From IMG/VR virus record IMGVR_UViG_3300018467_000009: a stretch of 4,117 bases of DNA; one strand, 5' to 3'. Position 1 is the first letter of the stretch. Each line of letters starts with the position of its first letter. The stretch is from a virus. Lineage: Duplodnaviria; Heunggongvirae; Uroviricota; Caudoviricetes. This document shows, piece after piece, positions 131-3,413 of the stretch. Position numbers and translations under genes: made by a program. Under the pieces are notes generated by a model. That model made no database searches. It had not been told where the DNA came from and worked only from the letters and a program-made list of their open reading frames with translations.

Positions 131-475
131 TCAAATCGGCATTCCTCTGTTAGTATTAACAGTGAGAGTTATTTCCAATACACCAACATTATCTGATACT
201 TCATCAACAATATAATTTTTACCGTTGATTTTCATTGACTGGTCTTTGACAGGGAGAACAGGAAAATCTTTTCTTGAAACAAATAATATTATTTGCCCCT
301 GATTTATTCCCTCTGCAAACTCAGCATATGAGCGTTTATTACGCTCATGAATAAGGTCTGTATCAATAACGGCAAGGATATCCTTGCCGTCTATGTTATA
401 TGTATCGGCAAACTCTTTTTCATTGAGGAATATTGCAGAAATATCTTGCGCTATAACCTCTTTGAAGGAGTTCAT
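131..475 (-). CDS. Head-tail joining (head completion) protein, lambda gpFII-like
   Basis: 114-aa ORF (lambda FII is 117 aa). C-terminal half 'IILFVSRKDFPVLPVKDQSMKINGKNYIVDEVSDNVGVLEITL' parallels lambda gpFII 'SLFVRTDEVRQLRRGDTLTIGEENFWVDRVSPDDGG' (LFV...I..-aromatic-hydrophobic-D.VS-D.G). Start ATG at 473-475 overlaps the upstream stop by 1 nt (TAATG). Stop TGA at 131-133. Confidence 0.7.
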   Translation of the reverse strand: MNSFKEVIAQDISAIFLNEKEFADTYNIDGKDILAVIDTDLIHERNKRSYAEFAEGINQGQIILFVSRKDFPVLPVKDQSMKINGKNYIVDEVSDNVGVLEITLTVNTNRGMPI

Positions 476-867
476 TACTTCTTATTACCTTTTTTTTGCG
501 TTGATTTTTTCGCATTACTGGTATCAGAAGTAGCTACAGATTCAGATGAATCATCAGCAACCATTTCCTCATTGCCGCCATCATCCTCAAACTCAACCTC
601 GAATACACAGCTACCCGCCTCCGTTCGCGTAATCAACCCCGCGTCCACAGCATCATTAACAGCAGATGCGTATCCATGCTCAAAAGCTAACTTAGCAGCA
701 TCATAGCCCCCAGCCGATGCCAAATCACCATCCTCTTCGGTGGCAATAGCATGTCCTGACGCTATCAGTTCGGCAATTCTGGAGTTATCCATTAGCCCAT
801 TAAGCAAACGGCCCGCTTTTAGCGAGCCGTGGCTTATCGTATCAATGTTTTTAATCAGTCTGGCCAT
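475..867 (-). CDS. Small acidic head-module protein of unknown function in the gpFI position
   Basis: 130-aa ORF, translationally coupled at both ends (TAAATG upstream, TAATG downstream). About 23 Asp/Glu, an acidic stretch 'FEVEFEDDGGNEEMVADDSSE' and a Lys-rich tail 'KKSTQKKGNKK'. No motif I can recognise. Its position matches lambda FI and the Gifsy-type gene that I recall carrying a legacy 'DNA breaking-rejoining protein' annotation; I cannot confirm homology from sequence. Confidence 0.6.
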   Translation of the reverse strand: MARLIKNIDTISHGSLKAGRLLNGLMDNSRIAELIASGHAIATEEDGDLASAGGYDAAKLAFEHGYASAVNDAVDAGLITRTEAGSCVFEVEFEDDGGNEEMVADDSSESVATSDTSNAKKSTQKKGNKK

Positions 868-2318: not shown

Positions 2319-2326
2319 CTCACCTT
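2319..2326 (-). promoter_or_regulatory. Shine-Dalgarno site for the decoration protein gene
   Basis: Minus strand reads AAT TAA GGTGAG TTT ATG. AAGGTGAG overlaps the protease stop codon and ends 3 nt before the ATG at 2313-2315. Confidence 0.7.
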
Positions 2327-3413
2327 AATTTTTATCGCGGTTTTTAAATACTGACCCAATAACATTTTTTACTACTTCAGCTTGTTTATCGCCGTTGTTT
2401 TCTGGTTGATTAACATCAACTGAATCATTCACCTCATTTGCGTCTTCTTGCCGTTGATTAAGAAAGTTTTTGTTACGCGCTCGCTCTGCATTCATAATTT
2501 CCAAAGCAAGTTCAGCCGCAGAAATTCCCGTTTTGAATTTTGCATTCTTAACCAGGTCGTCATGACCTGGAATTACGCTATTCTCGATTGTTTCAATGCG
2601 CTCGCGTTCTGATTTAACGCCCTCGTCTTTACCAGCATTAAAAACCTGATTGTATAATTCTGGATGTTTATTTTTTAATTCATCAAGAGTCACAACATCG
2701 TCCTCATTTTGTTCATTTAATTCAGTAGATAATTCATTTTTATTTTGTGGCAACTTTGCGAGCGAATCAGGTAATTTTGAAAACCTTGATGCTTCAAAAG
2801 TTATTCCATTGAGCGAAAGCATCCCTTCCTTTATAGAAGCGGATAAGCGCATTGGTTTTTCAACTTCGTCAGCAAATCCAAGCTCTACAGCCTCTTCTGC
2901 ATTTAGCCATGTTTCCTGATCCATTAGTTCAATTAATTTATCCTCAGAAAGCCCTGTTTTCTCCTTATATGCAGATAAAATACTATCTCGTATCTTATCC
3001 ATCATCTCAGCAATATCACGTAGTTCATCCGCATCACCAGCAGCAAATGTCCACGGATTATGGATCATCATCATAGCATTAGATGGGATAACAACTTTAT
3101 CACCTGCCATTGCAATAATGGTTGCAGCCGATGCAGCAATACCATCAATATAAACAGTAATATTAGCCTTATGACGTTTTAATGAAGAAAGAATAGCTTG
3201 AGCAGTAAAAACAGAACCACCATAACTATTAATTTTTACGTTGATAGCATTTGATGATATATCCTTTAATTTATTAACTATGTCAGAAGAAGAAACCTCA
3301 TCAAATTCGCCAATATATCCGTAGATTAAAAGTTCAGCCGGAGAGTCATCTTCACCCGTGCTATTTTTTATTTCCCACCAATTAGGCATCATCTGTCTCC
3401 ATATTTTGTTCAT
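2325..3413 (-). CDS. Prohead maturation protease, ClpP (S14) family, fused to a C-terminal charged scaffold-like domain
   Basis: 362-aa ORF. Residues 57-120 ('INVKINSYGGSVFTAQAIL...YIDGIAASAATIIAMAGDKVVIPSNAMMMIHNPW') match the ClpP fold: GG oxyanion region, catalytic Ser in 'GIAASAA', His in 'MMIHNP' (compare E. coli ClpP 'INSPGG...GQAASMGA...VMIHQP'). The C-terminal ~170 aa is E/K/N/D-rich and low in hydrophobics, typical of scaffold domains. Start is ambiguous: ATG at 3411-3413 has GAGG only 3 nt upstream; in-frame ATGs at 3390-3392 and 3387-3389 follow GGAG with 4 and 7 nt spacing. Stop TAA at 2325-2327. Confidence 0.85.
   Translation of the reverse strand: MNKIWRQMMPNWWEIKNSTGEDDSPAELLIYGYIGEFDEVSSSDIVNKLKDISSNAINVKINSYGGSVFTAQAILSSLKRHKANITVYIDGIAASAATIIAMAGDKVVIPSNAMMMIHNPWTFAAGDADELRDIAEMMDKIRDSILSAYKEKTGLSEDKLIELMDQETWLNAEEAVELGFADEVEKPMRLSASIKEGMLSLNGITFEASRFSKLPDSLAKLPQNKNELSTELNEQNEDDVVTLDELKNKHPELYNQVFNAGKDEGVKSERERIETIENSVIPGHDDLVKNAKFKTGISAAELALEIMNAERARNKNFLNQRQEDANEVNDSVDVNQPENNGDKQAEVVKNVIGSVFKNRDKN

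Follow-up and report, generated by a model that had tools for sequence, protein, structure and literature searches.

The head maturation protease gene (minus strand, 3389..2325) of the tailed-phage DNA analysed here, a stretch of 4,117 nucleotides referred to throughout as the window (IMG/VR virus record IMGVR_UViG_3300018467_000009), is most likely a nested protease/scaffold pair of the lambda C/Nu3 type carried on a protease of the ClpP fold. It is probable, judging from the comparative evidence set out below, that the window encodes a 39-kDa fusion of ClpP-type protease and scaffold together with a co-terminal scaffold of 122 amino acids (13.8 kDa) whose start would be GTG 2693-2691. This codon is Val241 of a 362-codon open reading frame (ORF) on the minus strand, 3413..2325; residue numbers given here are those of the 362-codon frame unless the numbering of the 354-aa protein is indicated, in which case 8 is added to convert to the former. 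An initial annotation of this DNA had suggested a nested, Nu3-like scaffold inside the protease gene, initiated at ATG 2822-2820 (Met198). That interpretation names the right kind of arrangement but puts it in the wrong place. A co-terminal product from an internal in-frame start agrees with our analysis, but the conserved start lies 43 codons downstream of Met198, at the in-frame GTG, and was missed as a result of examining ATG codons only. In place of a product of ~165 aa beginning MLSLNGITFEAS, the conserved start gives one of 122 aa beginning fMet-TLDELKNKHPELY.

Conservation of the internal start signal

DNA of relatives was gathered from genome contigs, IMG/VR, phage records and assemblies, and 31 representatives (<80% identity), all sharing an invariant ERxR motif in the C-terminal domain, were taken from Enterobacteria, Vibrio-like, Bacillota and Synergistota sources. 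The energy of the duplex with the anti-Shine-Dalgarno (anti-SD) sequence was computed over the 20 bases upstream of each in-frame ATG, GTG and TTG. An internal start was regarded as strong when one of these codons had a Shine-Dalgarno (SD) energy of -8 kcal/mol or lower, and the conserved zone was set at 20-45 codons upstream of ERxR. A start codon with a strong SD was present at the position aligned with Val241 in 28 of the 31 representatives, where about 5% would be expected for a zone of that size. This expectation follows from a background rate of 0.0022 per codon in the remainder of these genes, and the nominal binomial p is ~1e-32, the representatives not being phylogenetically independent. 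When the hits are plotted as a histogram, these 28 fall at offsets -40 to -21 and no other ten-codon bin contains more than four. As a control on the method, the same scan of lambda gene C (J02459, 4418-5737) singled out Met309 as the one strong internal start, its SD being AGGAGG at -10.8 kcal/mol; this codon we take to be the accepted Nu3 initiation site (UniProt P03711), while the J02459 record itself annotates a longer nu3 of 201 aa.

Codon usage at the site is equally distinctive. Among 39 aligned homologous proteins the Val241 column reads M in 19, V in 15, L in four and T in one, and codon 241 is GTG in all 11 of the enterobacterial relatives (52-100% amino acid identity) that were compared codon by codon. 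In these 11 sequences a four- or six-fold-degenerate residue is invariant in 60 columns, and of these columns codon 241 alone is written with a single codon; the other three invariant valine columns use three or four codons each with GTG in the minority, and GTG makes up 25% of valine codons overall. Four codons upstream, the sequence RAGG is invariant in the same 11 relatives, while the residues that it encodes vary (E/K, then D/E/V). Across lineages more widely the SD is encoded through differing residues, namely KEA, EEG, KGD, QGG, GGT and KEV, the spellings including AAGGAGGCA for K-E-A, GAGGAGGGG for E-E-G, AAAGGAGAC for K-G-D, CAAGGGGGC for Q-G-G and AAGGAGGTT for K-E-V. Since the SD is kept through changing amino acids, the constraint acts on the RNA and not on the protein. 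Comparison of the homologues in this way shows the internal start signal at GTG 2693-2691 to be under nucleotide-level selection across the family.

The spacing of the signal also lies within the range of the phage's own genes. In Yersinia phage vB_YpM_41, which is nearly identical to the window and has 33 annotated genes with a clear SD, the aligned SD spacing is 4-8 nt in 28 of these genes (mode 7), a range that includes the 5 nt found at Val241, and GTG serves as the start codon of six of 67 genes. A conserved internal start and ribosome-binding site at the beginning of the C-terminal domain is found for GTG 2693-2691 and is not found for ATG 2822-2820.

The position of the start need not be rigidly fixed. 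In the cultured Vibrio phages PVP-XSN and X29 the sole strong internal start is at MNLEELKAKHPDLY, and the methionine of the beta-meander lacks an SD. In Paenibacillus phage Lily (L179, gene 454-1575) the methionine aligned with Val241 (MTLDMFAQRHPDLY) has a weak SD, and the strongest start within the gene, at -11.6 kcal/mol, is a linker GTG that lies 22 codons upstream of this methionine. Lineages may therefore differ in where exactly within the linker the internal start falls.

On truncated contigs, gene callers time and again pick the Val241-aligned codon as a start. Among the best 150 matches to the 122-aa domain in a library of 1.84 billion proteins, about 25 are 'stand-alone' proteins, 117-139 aa long, that begin at the residue aligned with Val241. 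The possibility that the scaffold is a separate, split gene in these cases was considered and rejected: the three examined (L174, L175 and L176) lie 45-70 nt from a contig end and their upstream frame is open, so these proteins are choices of the gene caller and not split genes.

The predicted accessibility of the mRNA (opening energy from -18 to +10 in a 160-nt context) did not discriminate between the candidates, Met198 lying at the 71st percentile of in-frame positions and Val241 at the 81st. The test was uninformative because the true gene starts of the window span the 23rd to the 89th percentile.

Organisation of the protease gene and its C-terminal domain

Translation probably does not begin at 3413, where the mechanical ORF starts; the probable start of the long product is Met9 (ATG 3389-3387), annotated as such in the GenBank relatives ON470591.1 and OR545054.1, and homologues of the full-length protein begin MPNWW or MSNWW. 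The Met9 ATG, which is preceded by a second one at 3392, overlaps the portal stop TAA (3384-3382) by 8 nt, an overlap that suggests translational coupling of portal and protease. The N-terminal part is a serine protease of the ClpP/S49 clan, its type being S14 and not the S49 of lambda. Foldseek matched this domain to Staphylococcus aureus ClpP with a TM score of 0.82 on the target and a root-mean-square deviation of 1.6 A, and Ser87 and His110 (354-aa numbering) are invariant in the homologue alignment. About 177 residues remain beyond the end of the ClpP domain near residue 185, in line with the C-terminal extension of ~170 aa noted in the initial annotation. The same layout of ClpP domain plus extension occurs in more than 2,400 database relatives labelled 'head maturation protease', from prophages and phages of Enterobacteria, Vibrio, Bacillota, Synergistota and others.

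The AlphaFold2 prediction based on 39 homologues (mean predicted local distance difference test score, pLDDT, 77.5) divides the 354-aa protein into a ClpP fold to ~180, a beta-meander at 184-199, a linker at 213-231 and five helices within 235-351, predicted at 235-241, 243-270, 277-287, 291-321 and 333-351 (all in 354-aa numbering). The beta-meander is conserved, with the motif AAS...NG...SRF.N.P in the alignment, and the linker is gappy and variable. Val241 (residue 233 of the 354-aa protein) is the second residue past the low-confidence linker and stands two before the first helix. A product begun at this codon would consequently consist of the helical domain, which is acidic as well.

It is suggested that the C-terminal domain supplies the scaffold function because the capsid protein has no delta domain, its E-type Pfam match spanning residues 17-345 of 347, and because no other candidate gene is present. 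As the initial annotation had stated, no scaffold gene separate from the protease lies between portal and capsid; the intervening 127-aa ORF is lambda D-like. The HK97-type arrangement, in which a capsid N-terminal extension of ~100 aa accompanies a protease without a scaffold extension, was likewise not found. PHROGs returned only whole 'head maturation protease' families for the domain, and a BLASTP comparison with lambda Nu3 gave no similarity. An attempt to build a bridge to Nu3 through the related domain of Vibrio phage VPHZ6 (see below) failed. Homology of the C-terminal domain to Nu3 is not established, and a scaffold function is suggested instead by position, architecture and composition.

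Table 1. Features of the protease locus and adjoining head genes. Coordinates are positions in the window.
Feature	Position	Strand	Basis or remark
Portal gene, C-terminus	to 3382	-	Pfam Phage_portal_2 (PF05136)
Shine-Dalgarno of full-length gene, GGAGA	3396..3400	-	Aligned spacing 6 nt to ATG 3389
Full-length gene: ClpP-type head maturation protease fused to scaffold-like domain, 354 aa, 39.3 kDa	2325..3389	-	Start at Met9 of the 362-codon ORF
Protease domain of ClpP (peptidase S14) fold, residues 41-185 of the 362-codon ORF	2859..3293	-	PF00574, E 4e-32
Candidate start of the initial annotation, AAGGAAGGG (2831-2823) plus ATG 2822-2820, Met198	2820..2831	-	Judged a chance, lineage-specific SD-like motif
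Three-stranded beta-meander, residues 192-207, containing Met198	2793..2840	-	AlphaFold2 strands 184-187, 190-193 and 196-199 (354-aa numbering), pLDDT ~70
Predicted disordered linker, poorly conserved, residues 221-239	2697..2753	-	pLDDT <50 at 213-231 (354-aa numbering)
Shine-Dalgarno of nested gene, GAGGA, 7 nt from GTG (aligned spacing 5 nt)	2701..2705	-	Anti-SD scan, alignment
Internal in-frame initiation codon GTG, Val241 of the long frame, predicted nested scaffold start	2691..2693	-	Conservation
Nested co-terminal ORF, 122 aa, 13.8 kDa, pI 5.1, all-helical, scaffold-like, stop TAA 2327-2325	2325..2693	-	
Lambda D-like head decoration gene, 127 aa	1932..2315	-	PHROG 49, E 1e-24; Pfam HDPD match weak
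Lambda E-type major capsid gene, 347 aa	868..1911	-	PF03864, E 2e-55, residues 17-345 of 347

The upstream ATG at Met198

The coordinates on which the initial annotation relied were confirmed: ATG 2822-2820 is codon 198 of 362 and AAGGAAGGG stands immediately before it. With -8.3 kcal/mol it has the best raw anti-SD energy among the in-frame ATG, GTG and TTG codons of the ORF, and Met164 and Met188, described earlier as without such a motif, indeed reach only -3.6 and -0.7 kcal/mol. The motif is nevertheless no better than chance. In the 31 homologous genes, in-frame starts with an SD of -8.3 kcal/mol or lower number 39 beyond the conserved zone, an average of 1.26 per gene; 17 of the genes carry at least one such spurious start. 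The purine run abuts the ATG, giving an aligned SD spacing of 2 nt, which is seen in none of the 33 clear-SD genes of vB_YpM_41.

Nor is the site conserved. Codon 198 is ATG in two of the 11 enterobacterial relatives (the window and L167), GTT in five and ATT or ATC in four, and among them the purine run before it is confined to the window lineage; the relatives at 52-73% identity have GTT, ATT or ATC and no SD. In the 39 aligned proteins the column reads V in nine, K in seven, M in six, I in five and T in four, with others making up the rest. A Bacillota subgroup has AAAGGAGGG at the position of Met198, where it encodes K-G-G and is followed by ATG, ATT or TTT. The initial annotation had itself named, as grounds for giving up this start, homologues lacking a conserved methionine and purine-rich motif at this position, and the start at Met198 is refuted on those grounds because both are absent from the relatives of 52-73% identity. 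In the AlphaFold2 model Met198 (residue 190 in 354-aa numbering) is the first residue of strand 2 of the predicted beta-meander. Most likely, ATG 2822-2820 is not used to any important extent.

Alternative explanations

We regard it as quite unlikely that a nested scaffold of 165 aa (18.6 kDa) is started at ATG 2822-2820, by way of AAGGAAGGG, instead of or beside the product of GTG-241. The combination of motif and ATG with the best raw energy in the frame would favour it, as would the fact that ATG is a better start codon than GTG, the occurrence of AAAGGAGGG-ATG at the same column in the Bacillota subgroup, and the weaker SD at Val241 in this lineage (GAGGAC, compared with GAGGAGGAG in relatives), which makes a compensating start conceivable. 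Against these stand the GTT, ATT and ATC codons and missing purine run of relatives 52-73% identical, the frequency of equally strong spurious signals and an SD spacing outside the range of the same phage's annotated genes. In the Bacillota subgroup, moreover, it is the K-G-G codons that persist while the next codon varies, and a product from Met198 would, on the predicted structure, begin in the middle of the beta-meander and carry the disordered linker with it. A related reading, in which the gene of the Escherichia coli/Yersinia lineage gives three co-terminal products of 354 aa (ATG 3389), 165 aa (ATG 2822) and 122 aa (GTG 2693), is also quite improbable; here the weakened SD at the ancestral GTG would be compensated for by AAGGAAGGG-ATG, which may have appeared as a second scaffold start. 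If true, it would be a case of a scaffold start site caught while moving.

Two further explanations dispense with internal initiation altogether. Pausing of ribosomes at SD-like sequences on domain boundaries is a generic idea in the ribosome-profiling literature, where it is disputed. The conserved sequence could on this account be a translational pause site that aids folding of the protease, with Met or Val kept for structural reasons, and its location exactly at the domain boundary of the AlphaFold2 model is what such a site would have. A start codon is not needed for pausing, yet M, V or L occupies the column in 38 of 39 homologues with Val always encoded by GTG, the distance from SD to codon is in the range of initiation, and an identical signature marks the known Nu3 start in lambda, so that this account is very improbable. 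Somewhat less remote, though still unlikely, is the view that the full-length fusion is the only product and acts as both protease and scaffold in the manner of P2 gpO, the helical domain being freed by autoproteolysis in the linker. The fusion architecture with its disordered linker permits this, the public annotations examined give one coding sequence, the SD in the window is modest, and P2 gpO is reported to work so in the summary provided by bioRxiv 10.64898/2026.09.13.751334. A single product leaves unexplained, however, why a start codon and SD occur at one place in 28 of 31 divergent homologues, why GTG is constant at Val241 when other invariant valines vary freely in codon, and why the SD is retained through changing amino acids. 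A gpO-type gene would have no functional internal start, and at the sequence level a conserved SD and start codon are present here. Proteolytic release is in any case compatible with internal initiation, as in lambda.

Several observations weigh against a nested scaffold starting at GTG 2693-2691. The signal in the window is among the weakest in the family, GAGGA giving -5 to -6 kcal/mol and being combined with a GTG start, and the window is one of the three representatives out of 31 that fall short of the -8 kcal/mol threshold. The predicted opening energy at Val241 is unfavourable, at the 81st percentile of in-frame positions. The case for internal initiation is entirely comparative, and its p-value is nominal owing to the non-independence of the representatives. 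With regard to function, no Pfam family was found for the C-terminal domain, 20 homologous domains included, and two hhalign comparisons with Nu3 were weak (E 0.009, probability 4%, over 57 columns centred on an E-x-x-R-I motif).

Proposed mechanism

On the basis of a nested pair with its internal start at GTG 2693-2691, ribosomes starting at ATG 3389 would make the 354-aa fusion of ClpP-like serine protease, beta-meander, disordered linker and helical domain, and ribosomes that bind GAGGA (2705-2701) and start at the GTG would make the 122-aa helical domain alone. If lambda Nu3 and Mu gpZ are a guide, the short protein would serve as scaffold in the assembly of the lambda E-type capsid protein, its presumed partner. 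The long protein would co-assemble with the scaffold through the domain that they share, a few copies of protease thereby entering each procapsid. After assembly of the shell the protease would digest the scaffold and itself and the fragments would leave, whereupon the shell would expand and the D-like decoration protein bind to it. Precedents for this mechanism are found in lambda, Mu and herpesvirus (PMC3224144, PMC4378225, bioRxiv 10.64898/2026.09.13.751334), and production of the short protein, its action as a scaffold and the ratio of the two products are inferred.

The initial annotation had further expected scaffold in stoichiometric excess over protease, which is not established. The strength of the internal SD relative to that of the gene's own SD was tried as a proxy for such an excess; across homologues the medians are equal for practical purposes (-11.3 and -11.6 kcal/mol, respectively), both SDs of the window are modest, and no conclusion was drawn.

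Head module and phage context

According to the ORF list, Pfam and PHROGs, the genes of the window are all minus-strand and constitute a head module of the lambda type, in the order portal (PF05136), protease gene, D-like gene (PHROG 49) and E-type capsid gene (PF03864), to which two small head-completion ORFs are added. Directly downstream of the capsid gene, an ORF of 130 aa (475-867, minus strand) encodes an acidic protein with a lysine-rich tail, SNAKKSTQKKGNKK; its sole match is PHROG 5541, a family of unknown function (E 8e-79).

With Yersinia phages vB_YpM_39, 41 and 44 and Escherichia phages vB_EcoM-613R2 and 473R2 the DNA of the window shares 98-99.5% identity. Genes for tail sheath and tail tube are among the neighbours in vB_EcoM-613R2, and the phage is therefore a myovirus with lambda-type head genes. 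Copies 96-99.9% identical to the window are present on E. coli plasmids of ~48 kb (72 genomes at 80% coverage or more), and the circular record of vB_YpM_41 (49,128 bp) includes a hin-type invertase, a HigB2 toxin gene and a tRNA-Met. The lineage looks like a phage-plasmid myovirus with head genes of the lambda type.

Related architectures and significance

The scaffold-like module does not seem to be restricted to proteases of the ClpP type. Vibrio phage VPHZ6 (L173, OQ267696.1) has at 745-2109 an S49-type prohead protease (PF01343, E 2e-20) in place of a ClpP-type one, and its C-terminal domain is homologous to the helical domain of the window (hhalign probability 96.7%, E 3.5e-10); AAGGAG and an in-frame ATG (Met294) stand just before that domain, as the GTG does in the window. 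Because the same module follows an S49-type protease here, it is not tied to one protease type.

Other combinations also occur. The protease core alone (~2994-3174, query bases 240-420 of 3413..2325) is matched at ~70% nucleotide identity by more than 700 E. coli genomes, in which it forms part of genes bearing the annotation 'ClpP-like prohead protease/major capsid protein fusion protein'. Such fusions link protease, scaffold and capsid in a third manner. Short ClpP-type proteases without the extension (L013, L021, L034, L044, L126-L162) have capsid genes of 380-460 aa within 2-60 nt downstream. These capsid proteins are HK97-like, with coiled-coil N-termini resembling delta domains, and no separate scaffold gene was found downstream of the short proteases, where the HK97-like capsid genes stand instead. 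Across the family, the scaffold function appears to follow the protease in some members and to precede the capsid protein in others.

None of the public records examined has a nested coding sequence at the protease locus; each gives a single one, and a note in one GenBank record reads 'head-tail preconnector protease C / Phage head, scaffolding domain Nu3'. Literature searches found no paper on this phage group, and the searchable literature contains no description of a nested start in ClpP-type prohead proteases, the cases described being those of lambda, Mu/PaMx73, MD8, HFTV1 and herpesvirus. Should the GTG-241 start be used, an essential head gene is missing from the annotation of a large and widespread family, and the nested protease-scaffold rule known from lambda, Mu and herpesvirus would extend to ClpP-fold proteases. 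Knowledge of the true start would provide the right construct for expression of the scaffold, the right peptide to look for in proteomics, and clean synonymous mutations with which scaffold and protease functions could be separated. The main value of the result is for annotation and the design of experiments, and no new kind of biology is opened by it.

Comparison with known systems

The arrangement is already well known in other phages, as lambda C/Nu3 and Mu I/Z, and the present case is a previously unannotated one. In lambda the protease C has a nested, co-terminal scaffold (Shaw & Murialdo 1980, as cited in PMC8508860), the roles of the two proteins being treated in PMC3224144. The window resembles lambda in the order of its genes, with portal, protease/scaffold, D-like decoration and E-type capsid, and in the plan of the gene itself, in which an internal in-frame start and its SD come after a serine protease domain and give a co-terminal product of ~120-130 aa; one strong internal start per gene is what the scan finds in each. 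The two differ in that the protease is of the ClpP/S14 type in the window and S49 in lambda, and in the use of GTG with a weaker SD as opposed to ATG with AGGAGG. They differ too in their scaffold parts, whose homology is not demonstrable by BLASTP or hhalign, and the model of the window domain is strongly helical.

P2 gpO shares with the window gene an N-terminal protease and a C-terminal scaffold domain in one frame, but gpO is reported, in the summary mentioned above, to be made only at full length and to cut itself, whereas a conserved internal start signal is present in the gene considered here. [quoted passage not shown] The hosts are archaeal and eukaryotic, respectively, and the protease folds are unrelated or distantly related. 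The internal start of HFTV1 gp17 was demonstrated by start-site ribosome profiling and proteomics (bioRxiv 10.64898/2026.09.13.751334), and those cases have expression data, whereas the present one is comparative.

In Mu I/Z and in gene 27 of the Mu-like Pseudomonas phage PaMx73, the scaffold also comes from an in-frame start inside the protease gene and a decoration-like gene follows, although these are transposable phages and the protease belongs to another family. The scaffold start proposed for PaMx73 gene 27 is a valine (GTG) codon with ACGAGGA upstream and a 9-nt spacer (PMC4378225). With GAGGA and 7 nt before its own GTG, the window has in PaMx73 gene 27 the closest formal parallel for its start signal.

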